Below are positions 3,320-16,546 of a stretch of 16,546 bases of DNA, one piece after another. A program made the translations under genes and the position numbers. Source of the DNA: a virus. The first letter of the stretch is position 1; every line of letters begins with the position of its first letter. Under the pieces are notes generated by a model. The model was not told the origin of the DNA. It did not search any database and saw nothing but the letters and a program-made list of their open reading frames with translations. The stretch is taken from IMG/VR virus record IMGVR_UViG_3300033692_000041; one strand, written 5' to 3'.

Positions 3320-3448
3320 ATGCAGCACAAAAAAGAAAAAAGCCAGTCTCTAAGACCTAGAGCTGGCAAGCAACAAATGATTTATCCTATTAAATCAATT
3401 ATACCAGATAGTTACCGAAATAACAAGGTTCAGGGTGATTTTAAATGA
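3320..3448 (+). CDS. Small basic hypothetical protein (42 aa)
   Basis: The ATG at 3320 follows GGGAGA. Product is MQHKKEKSQSLRPRAGKQQMIYPIKSIIPDSYRNNKVQGDFK. The stop overlaps the next start as ATGA at 3445-3448, which suggests coupling. The ORF is below the track cutoff. Confidence 0.35.
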   Translation: MQHKKEKSQSLRPRAGKQQMIYPIKSIIPDSYRNNKVQGDFK

Positions 3449-4365
3449 GTGATAATAAAAAATATTATTATCTAAAATTAAAAGAAAATTTCTTTGATAG
3501 TGAAGAAATAAAAGTCTTAGAAAGCATGGAGAATGGTTATAAATACAGTAATATTTTATTGAAAATGTACTTAAAATCTTTAAAAAGAGAAGGGTTGTTG
3601 GTTTTCAAGGACACAATTCCTTATGATGTGAAAATGATTGCTACAATAACTGATCACAATGTCAATGATGTTAAGCAGGCTTTAGTATTATTTCAGCAAA
3701 TGGGCCTTATTGAGATTTTGTCGAATGGTGCGATTTACATGATGGATATACAAAATTTCATTGGTAAATCGTCAACTGAAGCTGATAGGGTTAGAGCTTA
3801 TAGAAATCAAGTTCAGGAGAAAAAAGAAGAATTATTAGAGTCTGAAGGTCCTGGAAATATCAGCGATCTTGAAGGTGATGTTACAAATGTTGTTACAAAT
3901 GTACAACAAAAGAACGACATTTCTACACCAGAGTTAGAGATAGAGTTAGAGAGAGAGAAAGAAAAACCGTCGGAAAAATCCGACAGTCAGCCTGGGGATG
4001 AGTTTTCGATAAGCAAAAAGGAAAATGGTCGTTATGATTATCCAAAGGCTTTTGAGAAAATATATAATCTTTATCCCAGTCAAAGAGGAAGTAAGAAGGC
4101 TCACTGGAGAAAATGGGCTGCAACTAGAAGAAAGGGGATACCTCAGGAAGATTTAGAGCTGGCTGCTAAAAACTATTCCTCTGAATGCAAAAAAAATGGA
4201 ACTGAAGAGCAGTATATAAAGCAATTTAAAACTTTTTTCGGAAGAGATGAACACTGGAGAGAATATATAGGACCAGAAACTGACTTTGATCAGGAAGCAG
4301 AAAAGCAAAAAAGGTTGGAAGATATGAGGAAAAAGCAGGAAGAGTGGGTAGAAAACTATGGATAA
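3445..4365 (+). CDS. Phage replisome organizer (N-terminal replisome-organizer domain)
   Basis: The N-terminus KKYYYLKLKENFFDSEEIKVLESMENGYKYSNILLKMYLKSL matches the characteristic Phage_rep_org_N pattern. The gene sits directly upstream of, and overlaps, a DnaB-type helicase gene. Confidence 0.8.
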   Translation: MSDNKKYYYLKLKENFFDSEEIKVLESMENGYKYSNILLKMYLKSLKREGLLVFKDTIPYDVKMIATITDHNVNDVKQALVLFQQMGLIEILSNGAIYMMDIQNFIGKSSTEADRVRAYRNQVQEKKEELLESEGPGNISDLEGDVTNVVTNVQQKNDISTPELEIELEREKEKPSEKSDSQPGDEFSISKKENGRYDYPKAFEKIYNLYPSQRGSKKAHWRKWAATRRKGIPQEDLELAAKNYSSECKKNGTEEQYIKQFKTFFGRDEHWREYIGPETDFDQEAEKQKRLEDMRKKQEEWVENYG

Positions 4366-5740
4366 ACAAAACATCTTTCAAAATTTAGCATTAGAAAAAG
4401 GGTTTTTATCCTCAATACTATCTAATCCCGAGTTATTTGGTGAGCATGTGGAGGAAACCAACGCTGAATTGTTTAGTAATGAGCTGCATAAAGCTGTTTA
4501 TAAAAAAATGGAAGACGATTATTTAGATAAAGGTAAAATTGCCAAAACCGAGGTCATGCTGTTTGCTTCTAAAGAGTTTGGCCAGGGTCAAATAGAAAAA
4601 ATTATTGAGAGTGAATACCTGGCTCCAATGGAGCTGGAGGATATAATTCATAATTTAAAAGAATGCAGGGAGAGAAGGAGAATTAAAGACTCTCTCAATA
4701 AAGCCTATAATTACTTGACTGACAATGAATTAAAACAGGATCAGTTCAAGTCTAAGATACAAGATGAAGTTTTTACTGCCACGAGTGAAAATTTAGAAGA
4801 AAAATTAATTCATGATGTTGAATCAGTAGCTTATGAATCATTCGAAAGATTCCAGGAGCGTCAAGAAGGCAAAGAAACAGAAAAAATAAGGACAGGAATT
4901 TATTCTTTAGATGCTATGACTGGAGGGGGATTAAGTAGAAAACACCTGAGCATTTTGGCTGGACGGCCTTCAATGGGTAAGACTGCAATGAGTTTAAGAT
5001 TATTGGGCTCTATTTTAAAAACTTCTGATACTCCTAGCTTGATGATCAGTTTAGAAATGGATCGAGTTAAACTATTGGATAGAATCCTGATTCAGGAGGC
5101 CAAAGTAAAAGCAAATGATTATTATAAAACAAAAAACAATCAAGAAAATAAAGTTGTTCAAAAGCAGAGAAATGCGATTGAGACAGCCAGAAATTGGCTG
5201 CATGATAAACCTTTAAAGATTACTGATAGAAGAGGACTGACAGTCAATGATATTAAATCAATTGCTAGAAAAGCTGACAATATTTACAATGGTGAATTGA
5301 AATTTATTGTTATTGACTATTTAACTGAAATAAATGTCAGCTCAGTAGGTGGAAGATTCGATAAAGGAACTGCTGAAGCTGTAAGGGAATTAAGAAGTTT
5401 GGCAGCTGAATTGGATGTTCATATAATGCTGCTGCACCAAATTAATAGAGATTTTAAAGGGAGGGGGAATAAACGGCCTCAACTGAGTGATCTTCGTGAT
5501 AGTGGGGAGATAGAAGAGAAGGCTGATAGCGTTTTCTTTGTGCATAGGCCTCAATATTATGAGTGTAAAGAAAAGGGGATTGATGAGCCCAAAGTTCAGG
5601 ATGATGCAGAATTGTTGGTAGCAAAGCAAAGAGAAGGTGCAACTGGGGCGATAAATATGATTTGGTACCCAGAGATAGTGTATTTTCAAGATTTTCATGA
5701 TCAGAAAGTCAGAGGACCCGTGAATTATTTAAAGCAATAA
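4358..5740 (+). CDS. dnaB: Replicative DNA helicase, DnaB family
   Basis: Walker A GRPSMGKTAMSL, Walker B-like FIVIDYLTEI, HQINRD, and LSDLRDSGEIEEKADSVFFVHRP. An 8-nt overlap with the upstream gene suggests coupling. Confidence 0.9.
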   Translation: MDKQNIFQNLALEKGFLSSILSNPELFGEHVEETNAELFSNELHKAVYKKMEDDYLDKGKIAKTEVMLFASKEFGQGQIEKIIESEYLAPMELEDIIHNLKECRERRRIKDSLNKAYNYLTDNELKQDQFKSKIQDEVFTATSENLEEKLIHDVESVAYESFERFQERQEGKETEKIRTGIYSLDAMTGGGLSRKHLSILAGRPSMGKTAMSLRLLGSILKTSDTPSLMISLEMDRVKLLDRILIQEAKVKANDYYKTKNNQENKVVQKQRNAIETARNWLHDKPLKITDRRGLTVNDIKSIARKADNIYNGELKFIVIDYLTEINVSSVGGRFDKGTAEAVRELRSLAAELDVHIMLLHQINRDFKGRGNKRPQLSDLRDSGEIEEKADSVFFVHRPQYYECKEKGIDEPKVQDDAELLVAKQREGATGAINMIWYPEIVYFQDFHDQKVRGPVNYLKQ

Positions 5741-5761
5741 AAAATTTTATGAGGTGATCAA

Positions 5762-6052
5762 ATGAGGGGATTCGCTAAATTACTTAAAGATATTGATAAT
5801 GTCAAACGGCAAAATAATGCCAGTAATCACGAAATGTCAGAGTTGTTGTCTAAAATCAGCGAATATTATAAAGATCGAGCTGAACCAAATCAGAGAAAGA
5901 GGCTGATCAGTGAGACAAAAAGCAAAATTGAAACCGCATTGACCTTTGTTGAAGCACTGGAAGCAGAAAGAGGCAGCGTTTTCACTCATGAAGCGAGGGA
6001 AGTTATCACTGATATTGGTGATTATTTAGACGAGATAGAAAAATACAGTTAG
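5762..6052 (+). CDS. Hypothetical protein (96 aa, helical or charged)
   Basis: ORF with SD GAGGTGAT 3 nt before the ATG. No motif recognised. Confidence 0.65.
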   Translation: MRGFAKLLKDIDNVKRQNNASNHEMSELLSKISEYYKDRAEPNQRKRLISETKSKIETALTFVEALEAERGSVFTHEAREVITDIGDYLDEIEKYS

Positions 6053-6062
6053 GAGGCAGCAG

Positions 6063-6605
6063 ATGTTAGCAACTAAATTAGCTTATCGCTACACTAAAGG
6101 CGAAATGAAAGAACTTTTAAAGAGTTTGACGATTCTCATTGACACCAGGGAGCAGGCCAACACTCATATTCAGGGATATTTCGATAGTAAATGCATAGAT
6201 CATAAAAACAAAAAGCTTGATTTTGGTGATTACAGTTTTATGCTGCCAGCTAATGAAAAGCTGGGAATCATGCGAGATATTTATTTTATGGACCAGATAG
6301 CAATTGAGAGGAAAGCCAGCCTGACTGAGTTAAGCAATAATTTTACTCACGATAGAACTCAGTTTGAGAACGAGTTAATCAGGTCGAATGGGAGCAAATT
6401 AATTCTACTGGTAGAGAATGCAGCAGGGTATGAGGATATTATTGAGCATAATTACAGGACCCAGTATAAGCCAAAAAGTTTTCTGGCCACGCTGCATTCA
6501 TTTAAACACCGTTATGACCTTGATACTGTGTTCATAAAGCCCGAAATAGCAGGAGATTACATTTATCGAAGTTTTTATTATTGGCTTAGAGAATACCTAA
6601 AATAA
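6063..6605 (+). CDS. ERCC4-type (XPF/Mus81-like) nuclease domain protein
   Basis: ILIDTREQ, GDYSF, and IAIERKASLTELSNNF (the ERK motif), followed by a LILLVEN strand. SD is AGGAGG. Confidence 0.7.
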   Translation: MLATKLAYRYTKGEMKELLKSLTILIDTREQANTHIQGYFDSKCIDHKNKKLDFGDYSFMLPANEKLGIMRDIYFMDQIAIERKASLTELSNNFTHDRTQFENELIRSNGSKLILLVENAAGYEDIIEHNYRTQYKPKSFLATLHSFKHRYDLDTVFIKPEIAGDYIYRSFYYWLREYLK

Positions 6606-6710
6606 GACCCTAAGTTCAACATAGGGCGTAGGGTATTAACCACCCCCTTTAAAGGTCAGATAGAATTTCAAACCGACCTATTAGTGCCTAGTTTTAATTG
6701 AGGGACTTAA

Positions 6711-6824
6711 ATGGTATTTCAGACAGGTAAAATTCGTACAGCTGATGGTTGGAACGATATTCGTACAGAGATAGGGAAAAATTGCCGAGAGTTTGGAGCG
6801 ACGAAATTCGTCGGACCAAAATAA
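6711..6824 (+). CDS. Possible 37-aa ORF inside the long spacer
   Basis: GAGGGA lies 5 nt before the ATG at 6711. Product is MVFQTGKIRTADGWNDIRTEIGKNCREFGATKFVGPK. The ORF contains the ATTCGTACAG direct repeat and the 15-bp palindrome, so the region may be regulatory or RNA instead. Confidence 0.25.
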   Translation: MVFQTGKIRTADGWNDIRTEIGKNCREFGATKFVGPK

Positions 6825-7030
6825 ATAATAGTCGGAGTTTCCCGAGGCCTTAAAAAAGAGAGAGTTTGCTGACACGGTTATGCGTGCGAGACTAAAACTT
6901 AACAAAACTTCACATTGAGAGACTTACAAAAGCTTACATTGGATACCTGAAAAAACCTGAGATTGAATAAAAATTATAAAGAGTTTGGTAACACGACAAC
7001 ATGCGTGGGAATGTTTACATATGTTGACAT

Positions 7031-7348
7031 TTGAAAGTAAAGGAGGTGATTGTTATCGAGTCTAAACAGGTAAAGGTTAAGGGAAAAGATTACTTAATCA
7101 AAAACCCTGGTGCCAGATGGGTCATAAAATTAGACGATGAATTAAAGCACAAAGGCGAAAACTTCGGTTCGTATGATTTAAAAGATTTCTCTGACAGGCT
7201 GCTGAATAAAGCAGTTGACGGTGATCTGCCAGCTGATGAAGAAGTGCAGGAAGAATTATTTAATGAGACATTGAAATTTATTGGTTTGTCGATAAAAGAG
7301 GAAACTATTGACGGTGAAAAGATAATGTATTTTGACTTTGAGCCTTAA
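7031..7348 (+). CDS. Hypothetical protein, tail-assembly-chaperone-like by size and position
   Basis: 105-aa ORF immediately upstream of the tape-measure-like gene. The track start is a TTG at 7031, but the strong SD AGGAGG (7041-7046) lies inside the ORF, so the true start is uncertain. The product call rests on position only. Confidence 0.6.
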   Translation: MKVKEVIVIESKQVKVKGKDYLIKNPGARWVIKLDDELKHKGENFGSYDLKDFSDRLLNKAVDGDLPADEEVQEELFNETLKFIGLSIKEETIDGEKIMYFDFEP

Positions 7349-7372
7349 TAGATTACAGAGAGGTGTTTAGTT

Positions 7373-9892
7373 ATGACAGGAGGTTCACAGAGAAGTTTAC
7401 ATTTCAAAGTTGGATTCGGAATTAATGACAGGCCACTCACTCAGGCCGATAGACGAGTTGATGATTTTAAGCAGAGTGTGGTCAGGGCTACTGACAGAAT
7501 GGGAGCCTTAGAGAGAAAAGCATATACTGCTGGCCGAGCTATGTCCAATGCTTTCGGTGGGGTTAAAAGAGCAATGGGTCGAGGGATTGCATTACTTGAA
7601 AGATATCGATACCAGTTAGGATTGATAGCTGGTGCGGGGATAGCTGCTATAGGAAAATCGGTGTTCAGTGCTGGTGATGCCAGGGAAACAGTTAATAAAT
7701 TCAATGTTGTATTTGGTGAGGTGTCTGATCAAACGAAAGATTGGGCTGATAAATATTCAAATCAGATTGGGCGTTCAAAATATGCGACAATGGACTGGCT
7801 CAACAGCTTTCAAGATGTTCTGGTACCAATGGGACTTGCCAGAGATGAAGCAGCTGCACTTTCCAAAGATATGGTTACTTTAGCAGCTGACTTAGGTTCC
7901 TTCAACAATGTTGGTACAGCAGAAGCGGCCAGAGGAATGCAGTCAGCTTTAGTTGGAAACCACGAAGCGGTTAGAATGTTAGGTGCTCAGCTCAATGAAG
8001 AGAATCTTAATGCTAGAGCTGCAGCAATGGGTTTTAAGGAAAACTTTGCTCAACTAGACAGCTTATCGAAAATGCAAATTAGATACCAAGAAATAATTGC
8101 TCAATCTCAAGATTCAATAGGCGATGCAACAAGGACTGCAATGGAATGGAATAATCAGGTTCAGAGATTCAAGGGAACTATTCGAGATGTTTCGATCGCA
8201 ATGGGTTTTAATTTCATACCGAGATTCACAGAGGGACTAATAGTAGTTAATGATTTTTTAGATAGAATAGAACAGAGCGAGAAGCTCACGGCAGCAGCCA
8301 GATTTTTCACTATTGGTGTTGCGATAACTGGAATAGCTGCAGCAATCGGAATGGTAAGCTCTGTTTGGCCTGCAATAGCTGCTATATTTAGCATTCAGGG
8401 TTTTGCTATAGCTGGTGCAGTAACAGGCCTAGTTCTTTTATTGGAAGACTTGTGGGTTGGTTTAAATGGTGGAGAGGCTGTTTTAAGTCCACTGATAGAC
8501 TTCACCAAAGAATATAAAAATGAGGTATTGGCTGTAGCTGGAGTAATAACGGCATTTTTTGCACCTGCAATATATTCTACAGCAATGCCAGCAGTCGGAG
8601 CGTTCGCTACAAGTTTATTTGTAAAGGGTAAAATAGCCTTAACCTCCTTTGCAAGTGGAATTTGGACTGCTATAACGGCCTCATTCGCTTTTTGGAAGGC
8701 TTTAATTACTAAAGCTGTTGTTGGTGTGGCAAGTTTTGCTACTTCGGTAGCTGGGGCTGCCTGGACTGCAGCAACTACCTTTGTTGGAGCAATAGGTTCA
8801 GCGATTACGGCAACATTATCATTTACAGCTGCACTGTTGGCTAACCCTATAACTTGGGTAGTGATAGGGATTGCTGCTTTAGGTGCTGCACTCTATACTT
8901 TGTATAAAAATTGGGATACAGTGAGTGCGTTTCTAACCAATACCTGGAATTCGTTTATTGATACTCTTTCAGCTGGTGTCAGCTGGATAAAAGAGAAATT
9001 TATTAACCTGCTGCCTGATGTTGACATGCCGAGCCTGCCAGATATAGCTGCTGGAATAAAGAATAAATTTAATGAGGCTGTTCAATGGGTAAAAGAGAAT
9101 CCGCTGACAGTAGTTAGATTCTTAGTTCCTGCAGTCAATCTCCCAGATATAATAAATAAGATTTACGAGGCTGGAAGGCAATTCATAAAGGACAAAACAG
9201 GGTTAGAACTGCCTGCCTTAAAACTACCTACACTGCCTGATTTGGTGGGAGCAGTCAAAGGGGTTTGGAATAAGGGTAAAGAGTTTGTGGCTGGCCTGAA
9301 TCCTTTTAAATTTCCTGATATACCTGATTTACCTGATCCAATAGCAAAGATTGATGAGTGGTCAGCTAGAATAAAAAGTAAATTAAGCAATATAGATTTT
9401 GGATCTGCTTTAAAGACTGCTATTGAAAATGCTATGGATAAACTGCCAGGCTGGATGCAGGGAATGGCTAAGAAAGTAATGGACTATCTGCCTCAATCAC
9501 CCGCGAAAGTGGGACCATTGAGCCAGTTAGACAGGGTAGGACCAGGACTCACTCAAACCATTGGAAAAGGTGTCGATAAGTCCAGAGAGCAAGTTACTGG
9601 ACCATTAAGCAGCATGTGGAATGAGTCAATGATTGCTGAGCCTAAAACTATTGTTAAAGATTATAACCCGATGACAGGTATATCTGACAGTGGTTTTGGA
9701 AATAGTAAGTCTGTAACCACGAATAATTATAATAACAGCAATTCTCAGCAGCAAAGGTCAGTGAAAAAAGTGGATAAGATTGAAATTATTGTTCAGGACT
9801 CTGGGGATAGCAAGCAGACTGCTATTGATGTCAGAAAAGAAATTGAAAAATATTTTGACGGAGAGGCCACGGCATCTTTAGCCAGTAGTTAA
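7373..9892 (+). CDS. Phage tail tape-measure-like protein (PhageMin_Tail / TP901-type core)
   Basis: NKFNVVFGEVSDQTKDWADKYSNQIGRSKY..., LAADLGSFNN, SALVGNHEAVRMLGAQLNEENL, and KMQIRYQEIIAQSQDSIGDATRTAMEWNNQVQRF are typical of tape-measure core regions. There is a long Ala/Gly-rich multi-helix hydrophobic centre. SD is GAGAGGTG. Confidence 0.85.
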   Translation: MTGGSQRSLHFKVGFGINDRPLTQADRRVDDFKQSVVRATDRMGALERKAYTAGRAMSNAFGGVKRAMGRGIALLERYRYQLGLIAGAGIAAIGKSVFSAGDARETVNKFNVVFGEVSDQTKDWADKYSNQIGRSKYATMDWLNSFQDVLVPMGLARDEAAALSKDMVTLAADLGSFNNVGTAEAARGMQSALVGNHEAVRMLGAQLNEENLNARAAAMGFKENFAQLDSLSKMQIRYQEIIAQSQDSIGDATRTAMEWNNQVQRFKGTIRDVSIAMGFNFIPRFTEGLIVVNDFLDRIEQSEKLTAAARFFTIGVAITGIAAAIGMVSSVWPAIAAIFSIQGFAIAGAVTGLVLLLEDLWVGLNGGEAVLSPLIDFTKEYKNEVLAVAGVITAFFAPAIYSTAMPAVGAFATSLFVKGKIALTSFASGIWTAITASFAFWKALITKAVVGVASFATSVAGAAWTAATTFVGAIGSAITATLSFTAALLANPITWVVIGIAALGAALYTLYKNWDTVSAFLTNTWNSFIDTLSAGVSWIKEKFINLLPDVDMPSLPDIAAGIKNKFNEAVQWVKENPLTVVRFLVPAVNLPDIINKIYEAGRQFIKDKTGLELPALKLPTLPDLVGAVKGVWNKGKEFVAGLNPFKFPDIPDLPDPIAKIDEWSARIKSKLSNIDFGSALKTAIENAMDKLPGWMQGMAKKVMDYLPQSPAKVGPLSQLDRVGPGLTQTIGKGVDKSREQVTGPLSSMWNESMIAEPKTIVKDYNPMTGISDSGFGNSKSVTTNNYNNSNSQQQRSVKKVDKIEIIVQDSGDSKQTAIDVRKEIEKYFDGEATASLASS

Positions 9893-9903
9893 AAGAAAAT
9901 CGC

Positions 9904-9926
9904 GAGGGGAGAAATCCCCTCTTTTT
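9904..9926 (+). terminator. Rho-independent terminator after the tape-measure-like gene
   Basis: GAGGGGA (9904-9910), GAAA loop, TCCCCTC (9915-9921), then TTTTT. Confidence 0.8.
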
Positions 9927-9970
9927 ACTGATAGATAGCATAAATCTTAAATAAAAAGAGATGTGATTAT

Positions 9971-10444
9971 ATGCAGGAGGAACTGACAAATCATGCAGAT
10001 GTGGCTGACCATTTAAAATGCTATTTTAGTGGTGAGTTGGAAAAATCAATTAGACGGCTTAAGAGGCTGGTTGAAAGGGAATTCCCTGAGGACTATTATT
10101 GCACGGTAAACGCTGTTAATCTGACACCTGGGAGGTCAAGTAATAGCACTGGTCATGCTGATTTTACGGCTTCAAGGGCAATTCATTTGGCTGATATTAG
10201 ATTAACCAGGAAAAGAATTTATAAAAAGCATGTTGAACTGAGAGAAGGTATTAAAAAACAGCTGGAAAAGTATGATCAGGAAGTCATTGACCTATTAAAA
10301 GCCGATTTAGGACTTATTCAGGCCACTAAAACAGAGATAGTGAGTGCAGCAAGTTTTGGTTACAGCAAATCAAGAGTGATATTAAGTCAGGTTTTAAAAG
10401 AATTAAGCACTGTAATTAGGAGGATTTTTGATGAATGCGATTGA
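9971..10444 (+). CDS. ArpU/RinA-like putative late transcriptional activator
   Basis: 157-aa ORF. Its layout resembles RinA/ArpU proteins: an N-terminal helix, a central NLTPGRSSNSTGHADFTASRA segment, and a C-terminal HTH-like TEIVSAASFGYSKSRVILSQVLKEL. Assignment is from remembered family features only. Confidence 0.45.
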   Translation: MQEELTNHADVADHLKCYFSGELEKSIRRLKRLVEREFPEDYYCTVNAVNLTPGRSSNSTGHADFTASRAIHLADIRLTRKRIYKKHVELREGIKKQLEKYDQEVIDLLKADLGLIQATKTEIVSAASFGYSKSRVILSQVLKELSTVIRRIFDECD

Positions 10445-10709
10445 AATCTTAGAAAATTACACAGATTTAAAGACAAAAAAAGAGCTTTTAGAATGCCAGG
10501 GGAAAGATAATTCAGAGCTGGAGGCTCAAATTAAATCTTATAACATAATTAAAAATTCATTATCTGAGAGAAAACAGAAAGTTTTGGAGCTGTATTTTGA
10601 GAAAGAGCACGAATATTATCGAATAGCAAGTGAAATTGGTTATAGTGTCAGCACTGTAAAAAGGGATATTAACGCAATCAAGTCAGAATTCAAGAAATAT
10701 TTGGACTGA
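10431..10709 (+). CDS. Sigma-70 region-4-like / RinA C-terminal-like HTH protein
   Basis: LSERKQKVLELYFEKEHEYYRIASEIGYSVSTVKRDINAIKSEF resembles a sigma region 4 HTH. AGGAGG lies 7 nt before the ATG at 10431. The gene overlaps the previous gene by 14 nt. Confidence 0.6.
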   Translation: MNAIEILENYTDLKTKKELLECQGKDNSELEAQIKSYNIIKNSLSERKQKVLELYFEKEHEYYRIASEIGYSVSTVKRDINAIKSEFKKYLD

Positions 10710-10879
10710 GAGAGGTCAGAGAAATAAAAAGTATGTAGATTTACCCATCTTAGAAAAACTTTTGCCTTATAGAGCCTCTGTAATAGCAGAGAATGACAGG
10801 TATTAAAGCATTTTAAGCATAGGGTGTTATATTGCCCTTTAAAATAAATATGGTCATAATAATAACTACCCTCTTGCTG

Positions 10880-12986: not shown

Positions 12987-13316
12987 TTGCTGAAACAAAC
13001 TTATTATTTACAGCTTTTAGTAACAGCTGTTGAAAATGTAGTTGATGCCTATGATATTGTCGAGGAGCCAGACTTTAATAGTGATATACAGCGAGAAATT
13101 CAAAAAATCGCAATGAAAACTGGTGAATCAGTCTTATTTGAGACAGAAATTAATGCTGAACTAATGAGCCTGAATTACAAGCTGGGTCATTTAAACAGAG
13201 TTGAGAGTATAATTAATGATATGAAAGAGGAAATTGAAGGGAAAAGGACCGAACTCATTGATGAGCTGAATCTTGACATTGAAAAGGAGGTGAGAAATGC
13301 TAAGAATAAAAAGTAG
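12987..13316 (+). CDS. Acidic hypothetical protein (109 aa)
   Basis: AGGAGGTG lies 5-6 nt before the TTG at 12987. The track extension back to 12921 overlaps the previous gene and lacks an SD. Confidence 0.65.
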   Translation: MLKQTYYLQLLVTAVENVVDAYDIVEEPDFNSDIQREIQKIAMKTGESVLFETEINAELMSLNYKLGHLNRVESIINDMKEEIEGKRTELIDELNLDIEKEVRNAKNKK

Positions 13317-13458
13317 AATTCATGACAGAAAAACTGGTGAGATAATTAGTGAGGAAATTACAGACGAAGTTCCAGACATCACTTTAGAAGAACTCAATCG
13401 GCCACTGGCTGAAATAATCTATAACAGGATCAAGGAAAAGAGAAAAAATAAAAATTAA
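13297..13458 (+). CDS. Small hypothetical protein (53 aa)
   Basis: AAAGGAGGTG lies before the ATG at 13297. The gene overlaps the previous gene by 20 nt. Product is MLRIKSRIHDRKTGEIISEEITDEVPDITLEELNRPLAEIIYNRIKEKRKNKN. Confidence 0.5.
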   Translation: MLRIKSRIHDRKTGEIISEEITDEVPDITLEELNRPLAEIIYNRIKEKRKNKN

Positions 13459-14868: not shown

Positions 14869-16149
14869 ATGTTTATTATATCAGACAAAAAGAAGAGTAT
14901 CAATGAACATAAAAAAATAGCAGCTTATCAAATGTCAGCAGCGGGTTTTAATCTTTTACCACTAAAAGAAGCTGACAAAGTGCCAGAGTTTAGTTTACTT
15001 CTAGGAAATAGCACAAAGCCGTATTTAGAAAATAAAGCCAGTGCTAACATAGTAAAAAGCTGGTTTGACAGTATGCCAAAAATTAATTTTGGAGTTTTTG
15101 CTGGAACAAAAGTTAATGATCATTATGTTTTAATTATAATCGACTTAGACAAAAGGCCAGATTTTGGGTTGCCAATTACACCAATTGTTAAAACTAGCAG
15201 AGGTTATCACTTATATTTTAAGTGCAGAGCTGACAAGCTACCAGTTCCACACAGGACGGCCAGAGGCGAGATTAAAACTGCTGGCTATGTTGTAGCACCT
15301 CCAAGCCTACACCCTTCAGGAATTAACTATCAGTGGGCTGAATATTTAAGTTTTAAAGATGTGCCACTTGCTGATTTTAGCAATAGGAGAGAACAAATTA
15401 TAAACTTTTTAGACCCAAATTTTACTCCTTCTGAATCCTTTAATAAGATAGCCAATAAAAAAGACTACACTAGAATTAATATTAATACTAGTGTAGTACC
15501 CTCAGAACTAAAAAAAGAGGACTTAGAAATTAAGGTAAAAAAGGGCATTAATAAAAAGTTGTTGATCAGGTTAAGCAAAGATGAAAAAGTTTGTCTGGAA
15601 GTAATGAGAAACTTGTTTGATGTGAAGGTTAAGAGAATCGGGCAGGCCTTTAAATGTCCTTTACATAGTGAAAAAAAGCCGTCTGCTGCACTTTATCAGA
15701 CTGACGACGGTGTCATTGGGTTCAAAGACTTCCACAGAGCAGGCAGTTTTTACACATTGCCAGAGGTTTATTATCAAGCCAGGACTGGGAAACAGCGGGA
15801 TTTAAAAGGAGCGACAAGTTTAATTTGGTGGATCAGAATGTTAAAAGATTCAGGAATAATTGAACTGCCAAAGATTATGCCACCAAAAGAAATTAATCAG
15901 CTGCCAGAGAAGCAGAAAGAGCTTTTAAGCAGCTTTATCGAATTACTGGAAGTTAGACAAGCATATAACACTGAACAGGACTCAGCACCATTTAGCCACA
16001 GGTTTGCAGCAGATTGGAGCGGCCTCAAATATGATACTGTTAGATATTCAAAGACAGCTTTAATCAAAAAAGGAGTTATTAAAAAAGTTGAAGCAGGCGA
16101 CAAAGAAAAAAGAAAAGCAGGAAAGTTTTCTTTAAAAAATAAACAGTAA
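14869..16149 (+). CDS. Prim-pol (bifunctional DNA primase/polymerase N-terminal domain) replication protein
   Basis: LIIIDLDK (DxD), TSRGYHLYF (sGyH motif), and GYVVAPPSLHPSGINYQW are hallmark prim-pol motifs. The C-terminal half contains FKCPLHSEKKPSAALY, which resembles the first half of a DnaG CHC2 zinc finger (CPFHxEKTPSF) without the second Cys pair. Confidence 0.85.
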   Translation: MFIISDKKKSINEHKKIAAYQMSAAGFNLLPLKEADKVPEFSLLLGNSTKPYLENKASANIVKSWFDSMPKINFGVFAGTKVNDHYVLIIIDLDKRPDFGLPITPIVKTSRGYHLYFKCRADKLPVPHRTARGEIKTAGYVVAPPSLHPSGINYQWAEYLSFKDVPLADFSNRREQIINFLDPNFTPSESFNKIANKKDYTRININTSVVPSELKKEDLEIKVKKGINKKLLIRLSKDEKVCLEVMRNLFDVKVKRIGQAFKCPLHSEKKPSAALYQTDDGVIGFKDFHRAGSFYTLPEVYYQARTGKQRDLKGATSLIWWIRMLKDSGIIELPKIMPPKEINQLPEKQKELLSSFIELLEVRQAYNTEQDSAPFSHRFAADWSGLKYDTVRYSKTALIKKGVIKKVEAGDKEKRKAGKFSLKNKQ

Positions 16150-16215: not shown

Positions 16216-16237
16216 ATATATAAAAGGTTTATATATG
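16216..16237. repeat. Perfect 9-bp inverted repeat and first copy of a 17-mer
   Basis: ATATATAAA-AGG-TTTATATAT spans 16216-16236. TAAAAGGTTTATATATG (16221-16237) recurs exactly at 16468-16484, which is 21-37 at the window start. Confidence 0.8.
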
Positions 16238-16326: not shown

Positions 16327-16460
16327 TAGATAGAAAAAATTAGGCCTGCCCTGACGGGTAGGTCTTTAGTTATAAGTGCATATTTGACACATGTAGATAG
16401 AAAAATTTAAGACTGCTATGACGGGGCTCCCCTGGGCTATAAGCGTAAATCTGACACATA
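16327..16460. repeat. Two tandem 67-bp imperfect repeats (iteron-like), putative origin
   Basis: 16327-16393 and 16394-16460 match at 48 of 67 positions in my ungapped hand alignment. The shared blocks are TAGATAGAAAAA, TGACGGG, CTATAAG/TTATAAG and TGACACAT. A related CTGACGGGG occurs at 16183-16191. Confidence 0.75.
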
Positions 16461-16546
16461 AAGACTTTAAAAGGTTTATATATGAATATAGAACTTAAAG
16501 AATTAAAGGTATTAGGGAATAAATAAAGTGAGTTGGTGAGAGGTTA
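16448..16546. repeat. Terminal overlap copy 2, identical to 1-99
   Basis: See the feature at 1-99. Confidence 0.9.

Follow-up and report, generated by a model that had tools for sequence, protein, structure and literature searches.

The DNA analysed here (IMG/VR record IMGVR_UViG_3300033692_000041, 16,546 nucleotides; the whole of this stretch is called the window below) carries an intact gene for a phage tape measure protein (TMP) and, directly upstream of it, a tail-assembly-chaperone-like gene. Judging from its ends, its relatives and its genes, the window is most likely the whole of a plasmid-like circular replicon, 16.4 kb in size, that belongs to Halanaerobium, a salt-loving anaerobe of the Halanaerobiales. 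Our analysis leans, if only modestly, towards this element being a plasmid-like phage satellite that would supply its own TMP and chaperone for tails otherwise built by a helper phage. It may be noted that the initial annotation of the sequence had described an orphan tape measure gene without a tail and had offered three explanations for it, viz. co-option (for example as a membrane channel), a satellite that changes the tail length of its helper, or a leftover from genome reduction. The features of the operon are as follows.

7031..7348, + strand: tail-assembly-chaperone-like gene, 105 aa as listed, recognised by homology to the phage open reading frame (ORF) in the chaperone position
7373..9892, + strand: TMP gene, 839 aa, intact, recognised by PHROG TMP families and phage homologues
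8285..8911, + strand: hydrophobic Ala/Gly-rich centre of the TMP, residues 305-513, from composition and hydropathy
9008..9340, + strand: LPD-containing TMP repeats with a period of ~31-35 aa, from the motif positions
9904..9926, + strand: intrinsic terminator closing the chaperone/TMP unit, GAGGGGAGAAATCCCCTC followed by TTTTT

The assignment of the 839-aa ORF to the tape measures holds, as its core falls in tape-measure families on homology search: phrog_1535 matches residues 28-296 (E 1.6e-32), and the tape-measure families phrog_991, phrog_58, phrog_28 and phrog_1272 cover residues 364-826. A tblastn search with the protein found annotated phage TMPs (e.g. FP_Brigit, E 4e-28), and phage homologues reach up to 84% identity. 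The profile of the TMP family gave a weak match to the TMP chains of solved tail structures, and no Pfam model, PF10145 included, reached the threshold on this protein. The features expected of a TMP, that is a long protein, hydrophobic segments and repeats of variable length, are all present. Residues 305-513 contain 22.6% Ala and 9.1% Gly with only 14 of 208 residues charged and several Kyte-Doolittle peaks above 1.6, in agreement with the hydrophobic centre described initially, and the LPD series noted there was also recovered, the motifs starting at nt 9011 (LPDV), 9035 (LPDI), 9140 (LPDI), 9233 (LPDL), 9311 (FPDI) and 9329 (LPDP). The long centre is common to the element and to three of the phage TMPs listed further below (P0004, P0017 and the MA284_T2 prophage, L047), with a shorter form in P0006, P0007 and P0008. 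The copy number of the LPD unit varies among the phage TMPs, P0007 having one extra unit and P0004 ~66 aa fewer. As an observation on composition, G+C over 7001-10000 is ~0.40-0.42 against ~0.31-0.38 elsewhere, mostly on account of the Ala/Gly-rich centre.

Between the window and its sister contig L002 the TMP gene shows a nonsynonymous divergence (dN) of 0.069 and a synonymous divergence (dS) of 0.762, and the resulting dN/dS of 0.09 indicates a functional gene under purifying selection. A decaying leftover of genome reduction is thereby excluded. The last ~60 residues of the element TMPs are unlike those of all phage TMPs compared (51-54% nucleotide identity, versus 92% among the elements), and the C-terminal VDKIEIIVQDSGDSK region would be diagnostic of the element protein. 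The strong terminator reported directly after the gene is present, with a hairpin at 9904-9921 that has a 7-bp stem including 5 G-C pairs and begins 12 nt past the TMP stop. The gene thus does not have the placement of a TMP gene within a tail module: the terminator and regulatory genes lie 3' of it, and the circle has no further tail genes.

The earlier view of the TMP as the only tail-type gene proved wrong, since the upstream 105-aa ORF is a chaperone homologue. Its product aligns with the N-terminal domain of the 163-aa ORF found in the chaperone position of related phages, with a shared NPGxRW motif (BLASTP against the L047 163-aa ORF, E 1e-7; hhalign of family against family, probability 93%, E 2.7e-7); this phage protein is identified by its position and has no Pfam or PHROG name. 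The dN/dS of the chaperone gene between the window and L002 is 0.17, and the true start is possibly a few codons 3' of the listed TTG. The ORF ends in the double stop TAA TAG, the first stop ending at 7348 and the TMP ATG lying at 7373, a spacing of 24 nt. No frameshift extension is possible, both alternative frames being full of stops, and on this point the initial annotation was accurate. The phages, by contrast, have an overlapping 75-aa second ORF after the chaperone-position ORF. By homology, then, the element carries a chaperone/TMP pair from a phage tail module. Some details of the layout may be added. The chaperone and TMP ORFs share a reading frame, with TAA TAG and seven sense codons between them (7346-7375). 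The chaperone-position protein of related phages has 86-91 aa, and the 163-aa form of the Halanaerobium phages is an internal duplication (L007 9290-9781, compared with L055 9496-9759, L010 9514-9774 and L048 5332-5604). Also, the 75-aa second ORF of the Halanaerobium phages is in the +1 frame relative to the first and not in the usual -1 frame.

Positions 16448..16546 are an exact 99-nt copy of positions 1-99, that is an assembly overlap that closes a circle of 16,447 bp. This terminal identity makes the window a complete circular molecule and not a fragment, so that a misjoined junction with tail genes lying beyond it, which the initial annotation had allowed for, does not apply. The sister contig L002 has a terminal overlap of 141 nt and a unit of 17,320 bp, and contigs of the P0002 lineage (TMP identity 89%) occur in 34 data blocks, all ~17.3-17.4 kb long with the same gene order and with start points that vary around one circle. 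A defective or miniature phage remnant, or an artefact that joins a phage tail fragment to a plasmid, is hardly credible on these data. Such an origin would agree with the place of the contigs in a viral contig collection and with the G+C of the TMP region (~41%, against ~33-36% for the rest of the element), but the same circle comes from many samples and from different assemblers, as the 99-nt and 141-nt overlaps show, with different start points; moreover, the TMP is under strong selection, and the junctions on both sides of the chaperone/TMP operon are conserved between element lineages.

To define the gene content of the circle, all sizeable ORFs were scanned with Pfam, PHROG and NCBIfam, and these scans found no integrase, capsid, portal, terminase, tube, sheath, baseplate or relaxase gene. 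The claim of a TMP gene without a tail therefore stands in so far as the closed circle has no other tail, capsid or terminase genes, and has to be amended for the chaperone homologue. No conjugation or mobilisation functions (relaxase, coupling protein, oriT) were seen in the window. With the entire window as query, megablast found no match among GenBank phages or PLSDB plasmids, and Rfam and tRNA scans of the window detected no RNA genes.

Homologues of the TMP with 59-84% full-length identity lie in ordinary contractile-tail modules of temperate phages of ~47-48 kb. The module order in these phages is tail terminator, sheath-like protein, PhiTE-type tube, the 163-aa ORF with the overlapping 75-aa ORF, and TMP, followed on the 3' side by Dit-like and Pam3_gp18-like proteins, the sheath initiator and Baseplate_J. 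The homologues compared, of which P0004, P0006, P0007 and P0008 come from metagenomic myophages, and the tract that the window shares with one phage contig, are listed below.

P0004: TMP homologue of 776 aa, 74% identity to the window
P0006: TMP homologue of 787 aa, 64% identity to the window
P0008: TMP homologue of 789 aa, 62% identity to the window
P0007: TMP homologue of 823 aa, 59% identity to the window
P0017, prophage in a metagenome-assembled genome (MAG): TMP homologue of 664 aa, 56% identity to the window
Prophage of the cultured Halanaerobium saccharolyticum MA284_T2: TMP homologue of 845 aa, 84% identity over 840 aa
9155..9348, + strand: 194-nt tract of the window with an exact counterpart in the TMP gene of phage contig L011, with flanking segments 45-90% identical

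The alignment of element and phage TMPs is a mosaic. In addition to the 194-nt tract, the TMP gene of L002 equals that of the MA284_T2 prophage over 1,749 identical nt (gene nt 112-1860), with diverged ends. Identical tracts of this kind are, on the sequence comparison, the mark of recent gene conversion between elements and phages, from which it follows that element and phages have shared cells, with Halanaerobium as the host. A full-length gene that exchanges long identical tracts with phage TMP genes gives no support to co-option as a membrane channel. Of the three original options, the satellite is the best supported, and only its second half falls away: the element TMPs, at 839-841 aa, are inside the phage range (776, 787, 789, 823 and 845 aa), so that a change of tail length is not specifically supported; set against phage TMPs of 823 and 789 aa, one of 839 aa would predict tails differing by only ~2 nm and by ~7 nm, respectively. 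Other traces of contact with phages are a 53-aa ORF at 13297-13458 (75% identical to a phage early gene), the C-terminus of the replisome organiser (67% identical to a phage gene in L097) and, in L002, the N-terminus of a 267-aa protein (60% identical to another phage gene). Also, the element L001 (TMP identity 99%) and a 48.4-kb phage contig were found in the same sample, 3300035042.

A specific candidate helper phage thus appears, from its sequence, to be present in the same host. It is temperate, with a large serine recombinase, a cI-like repressor, RecT and a DnaC-like loader. Helper-type contigs range from 46.8 to 48.4 kb, with circular permutation in the longest of them. Three element units would add up to 49.3 kb, about one headful when set against a helper genome of ~47-48 kb. 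The genome of a satellite is usually one third the size of that of its helper, and the match of three copies with a headful is suggestive only. The contigs of similar size P0034 and P0018, whose TMPs are more distant, were considered as further small elements together with L048 from a MAG, and all turned out to be ordinary phage tail modules. In the literature on Halanaerobium prophages nothing specific was found.

When the window was compared with ~480 kb of phage loci, the DNA similarity outside the TMP gene was found to be only intergenic, and three matches lay within 200 nt 5' of the chaperone gene. These define the following features.

6827..7030, + strand: conserved non-coding cassette 5' of the chaperone/TMP operon, with matches inside three phage small-terminase genes (terS)
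6945-6964: type A box, 20/20 match to terS type A, where it encodes NLKKPEI
6862-6889: type B box, 26/28 match to terS type B, where it encodes EEFADTITRAK
6842-6858: type C box, 17/17 match (35 nt at 83%) to terS type C, where it encodes SEALKK
6777..6815, + strand: third, weaker GAGTTTGG box with a different inverted repeat (CGACG..CGTCG), direct-repeat family D6

A second type-B-like box is present at ~6981-7007 and a weaker copy at ~6788, and L002 has three. None of 100 shuffled controls reached 34 bits. The targets of the boxes are confirmed small-terminase genes (phrog_51, phrog_606 and phrog_309), and they belong to three alternative cassettes of small (TerS) and large (TerL) terminase subunits in phages whose portal genes are 92-100% identical; by these sequences, packaging modules have clearly been exchanged within a single phage population. 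The three cassettes are unrelated, with TerS of 189, 170 and 165 aa and TerL of 428, 420 and 474 aa (L040 2071-3913, L034 4649-6410 and L032 8067-9985, respectively). Between the window and L002 the non-coding cassette is 85% identical, against 61% at the 4-fold sites of the TMP gene and 39% in 6606-6826, the remainder of the long intergenic stretch that precedes the operon; on this comparison it is conserved well above the neutral expectation. In IMG/VR the exact 20-mer is confined to these elements and to terS genes of the Terminase_2 type, and the sibling element L072 (IMGVR_UViG_3300028378_000401) retains boxes C and B.

No recognisable TerS gene exists in the window. A decayed terS gene was considered for the cassette and rejected: a tblastn search of phage TerS against the elements was empty, and the matching frame contains stops. 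On these grounds the boxes are treated as DNA elements of terS origin. Well-studied headful phages, among them P22, SPP1 and the staphylococcal phages that SaPIs (Staphylococcus aureus pathogenicity islands) exploit, have their pac site within or at the small-terminase gene, and the analogy suggests that the cassette is a pac-site mimic aimed at several helper terminases. An antisense-RNA role of the boxes was not favoured, as they have the same sense as the terS mRNA, and no promoter-like site of the minus strand was found there. A late promoter shared between the phage region 5' of terS and the intergenic regions of the element was also sought, and only low-complexity 9-12-mers were in common. 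On the phage side, a G-rich tract GAGAGGGGAGAGGGGGACTACAGGGGGAGTGGGGAGAGCAGG is conserved 5' of all three terS types in phages that are otherwise A+T-rich (L040 1960-2000, L034 4540-4580, L032 7768-7810), and this tract may be a late-promoter or regulatory element.

The sibling element L072 offers a further observation on this region. Its ERCC4-type nuclease gene is 80% identical to that of the window, and on its reverse strand, at ~7760-9035 in reversed coordinates, a 171-aa ORF comes after ERCC4 and boxes C and B and takes the place of the chaperone/TMP pair. This ORF has an N-terminal Cys-rich zinc-ribbon resembling the N-termini of TerS types A and B, with no PHROG or Pfam match, and elsewhere L072 has a 130-aa ORF matching phrog_1066 and phrog_5110 (small terminase).

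The remaining genes of the window that bear on its classification are those for replication, DNA processing and regulation.

3445..5740, + strand: replication module of replisome organiser and DnaB-type helicase (Pfam, PHROG)
14869..16149, + strand: Prim-Pol type primase/polymerase gene (Pfam Prim-Pol, E 1.4e-13)
6063..6605, + strand: ERCC4-type nuclease gene (Pfam ERCC4, E 1.5e-12; phrog_3490, E 2.7e-59)
9971..10709, + strand: two small sigma-region-4/ArpU-like regulators of 157 and 93 aa, 3' of the TMP gene

The 93-aa regulator has Sigma70_r4 matches, and the 157-aa regulator gives a weak collinear match to a phage 161-aa activator (phrog_36/248; pairwise E 0.004); from their sequences, both are candidate late-gene activators. 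With most virion genes absent and its own replication and regulation kept, the element has the composition of a satellite. A chromosomal island would have an integrase and site-specific integration; no integrase domain was found in any ORF, and the contig is circular. A phage-plasmid would carry a full set of virion and lysis genes, and only the chaperone and the TMP are on the circle.

A more distant relative bears on the age of the arrangement. In an isolate of Natroniella sulfidigena, AHT3, the 25-kb, plasmid-like contig L056 (JALKBY010000023.1) has no tail genes besides a TMP, and encodes a ParM-like protein, a primase/D5 helicase, ERCC4, a 231-aa ORF, the TMP of 651 aa, FtsK/SpoIIIE and Replic_Relax. 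Its ERCC4, just 5' of the TMP, is 60% identical to that of the window. Natroniella sp. ANB-PHB2 contains a complete myophage-type prophage whose TMP shares 76% identity with that of L056; between L056 and the window, TMP identity is only 40%. ERCC4 and TMP genes occur linked on tail-less replicons of two genera, which makes the arrangement an old one, and as the TMP tracks the local phage in each genus, a match to the local tail machinery would seem to matter. This bears on the idea of a plain, helper-independent plasmid with the chaperone/TMP pair as a passenger, either recent cargo or in a non-tail role (membrane-active, or in DNA uptake). Such a plasmid would need the full replication functions that the element has, the pair is its sole set of virion genes, and TMPs do have membrane-inserting segments. 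We consider it quite improbable all the same, since ERCC4 and TMP are linked in both genera with each TMP near that of the local phage (76-91%) and only 40% identical to the other; this indicates long retention with continual matching, for which neither chance cargo nor a phage-independent role gives an explanation. The conserved terS-derived cassette would also be left unexplained.

Under the satellite reading, the element would behave as a hitch-hiker of a resident or infecting helper. In the late phase of the helper, its small terminase would recognise the element DNA through the terS-derived boxes, the DNA would be packaged by headful (three copies, with the length given above), and the element's chaperone and TMP would enter tails whose other components come from the helper. 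The element might gain by evading a TMP-targeting block or superinfection exclusion, or by having satellite capsids selectively tailed. Several points weigh against this reading. Packaging of the element, entry of its TMP into tails and a benefit to the element are candidate functions, proposed here from sequence. The element has no integrase and no recognisable gene for capsid size or interference, and so matches no satellite family defined so far. With 17-28 nt the boxes are short, and a pac role for them rests on the location of pac in other phages. In IMG/VR scans both boxes searched fall on conserved TerS protein motifs in many phages; as the pattern search fixes the codons, constraint at the DNA level and at the protein level are inseparable in it, and because of this overlap the matches prove terS origin and not present function. 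The chaperone is without the frameshift extension that normally recruits the tube protein, and it could equally be an interfering protein. FtsK/SpoIIIE and Replic_Relax on the Natroniella element point to possible conjugation, for which perhaps no phage is needed. Finally, the AlphaFold (AF2) model of the 105-aa protein has a pLDDT of 84, and Foldseek found nothing significant for it in the PDB (best E 0.35). Among the non-significant hits, YqbN (3KLU) had the highest probability (0.6) with a TM-score of 0.43-0.48; we take this B. subtilis protein to be the XkdN-type chaperone encoded beside the tape measure gene of the skin prophage. Within the top 30 was also 5IR0 (TM-score 0.35), the solved tail assembly chaperone (TAC) of PLE1, a phage-inducible chromosomal island-like element (PLE) of Vibrio (PMC12987554).

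The main rival to the satellite reading, which we hold to be unlikely, is an anti-phage defence plasmid. Here an over-produced TMP allele and a truncated chaperone without the tube-recruiting extension would poison or mis-size the tails of an infecting or induced phage and the boxes would act as terminase decoys; the plasmid would profit from the survival of its host population and not from transduction. Interference with tail assembly is a known defence strategy (PMC11364771; Rta in PMC12987554), and the chaperone, which gives no frameshift product, is shorter than the 163-aa and 75-aa pair of the phages, the last ~60 residues of the element TMPs differ from phage TMPs, and the Natroniella relative resembles a partitioned, possibly conjugative plasmid. 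However, full-length conservation of the TMP at its low dN/dS and long imports from working phage TMPs fit a tape measure, and a poison needs neither. Against the chaperone argument, the basal protein of related phages has 86-91 aa, so that 105 aa is not obviously truncated. Also, DNA that binds a terminase tends toward packaging, by which the decoy idea merges into the satellite idea.

We also raise, tentatively and as a doubtful but possible case, an unrecognised kind of satellite, namely a free plasmid without integrase and capsid genes that exploits a whole helper population. Its tandem multi-pac cassette would hold one short box for each alternative helper small terminase, its own TMP gene would be continually re-matched to helper alleles by recombination, and the satellite TMP and chaperone would allow tailing or injection where helper particles are blocked, whether by superinfection exclusion or by a TMP-targeting inhibitor.

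Among known systems, the Vibrio PLEs come close. They have a conserved TMP and TAC, and the PLE TMP is found in PLE particles, from which the helper TMP is excluded, giving chimeric tails (PMC12987554). Their helper phage is ICP1, and PLE11 encodes the TMP-targeting Rta (PMC12987554). Like the element, which is a candidate in this respect, PLEs are satellites of a contractile-tailed phage with their own TMP and chaperone and without tube, sheath and most baseplate proteins; each also brings a replication module of its own and a nuclease gene. The differences are, however, several. PLEs are integrated islands with an integrase in Gammaproteobacteria, and the element is a free circle without one in Halanaerobiales. 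The PLE TMP is ~20% identical to that of the helper and differs from it by 95 aa in length, whereas for the element TMP identity to helper-type TMPs reaches 84-91%, some tracts matching exactly. A baseplate hub protein is part of the PLE gene set, and no hub-like gene turned up in the element. Incorporation of the TMP has been shown for the PLEs, and the element is known here from its genes.

The EPIPs, satellites of Mycolicibacterium phage HerbertWM, also carry a tape measure gene, as the element does, for which their authors suggest a special tail hijacking (preprint PMC12822802). They differ in that they reportedly encode a serine integrase, a small terminase, head-tail connectors and genes related to scaffold and capsid, all of them absent from the element, and in belonging to another host phylum with a siphophage-like helper. 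Satellites of the PICI/SaPI type (phage-inducible chromosomal islands) and of the P4 type resemble the element in its size of about one third of the candidate helper, in the presence of dedicated replication genes and regulators, a divergent pair among the latter, and in taking virion parts from the helper, which for the element is proposed; some of them carry the helper cos/pac or their own small terminase. In contrast to them, the element has no integrase, attachment site, capsid-size redirection genes or recognisable TerS, and these satellites are not defined by a TMP. The ordinary TMP/chaperone module with the G-GT frameshift, as in E217- and Pam3-like myophages and in PBSX (XkdN/YqbN-XkdO), is homologous to the element pair, which recombines with the Halanaerobium-phage version and shares the N-terminal core, hydrophobic centre and C-terminal repeats. 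The element pair differs in standing outside a tail module, without a frameshift partner and flanked by a nuclease gene, the non-coding cassette and regulators. Phage-plasmids, lastly, are likewise extrachromosomal circular replicons with phage-derived genes, but they encode a complete virion and the element only two tail-assembly proteins.

Satellites carrying their own tape measure are already in the literature since 2025-2026, when the Vibrio PLEs gave the first experimental demonstration, so far the only one. New here are the host phylum, the free circular architecture without integrase and capsid genes, the close, recombining relation between satellite and helper TMPs, and the three-allele terS-derived cassette. 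If the satellite reading is true, satellite tape measures reach an unrelated phylum (Halanaerobiales of hypersaline and hydraulically fractured subsurface habitats) and another kind of element, the free circular replicon. The selectivity of TMP incorporation would be easier to dissect than in the PLEs with their ~20% identity, as the TMPs differ mainly at the C-terminus, and the three terS-derived boxes would suggest packaging of one element by helpers with different terminases. The prophage with a matching TMP in the cultured strain H. saccharolyticum MA284_T2 makes this testable in culture. It may be added that such contigs are labelled viruses in viral catalogues on the strength of a single gene.

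The other features of the circle include an RNase H-like gene, HTH_17 proteins, small ORFs and a divergent gene pair.

1315-2427, - strand: 370-aa protein with a weak C-terminal CGNR zinc-finger match (E 0.004)
2532-2747, + strand: 71-aa XRE-type helix-turn-helix protein, divergent from the 370-aa gene

The layout of this pair is like that of a genetic switch or a satellite master repressor. Among the sister elements the backbone is constant and the replication modules are swapped (3445-5740 and 14869-16149 in the window, against 3459-6035 and 15566-17167 in L002). The set of the window consists of replisome organiser, DnaB and Prim-Pol, and that of the relatives of a 267-aa protein, a Toprim-DnaB_C primase-helicase (586 aa) and a 533-aa winged-helix protein. 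On the 3' side of the Prim-Pol gene, two tandem 67-nt units (72% identical), each with a hairpin, extend over 16327-16460 into the 1-99 overlap, and a 17-nt exact repeat, TAAAAGGTTTATATATG, occurs near them at 16221 and 16468; the tandem hairpin region may be a replication origin. Directly 3' of the 93-aa sigma-like gene, 44 nt of the window (10720-10763) are 88.6% identical to L024 15089-15132, where the counterpart is the 3' end of a reverse-transcriptase gene. This gene belongs to a diversity-generating retroelement (bAvd and reverse transcriptase) that lies beside tail-fibre genes in the candidate helpers (L007 19454-21260; L024 13223-15107).

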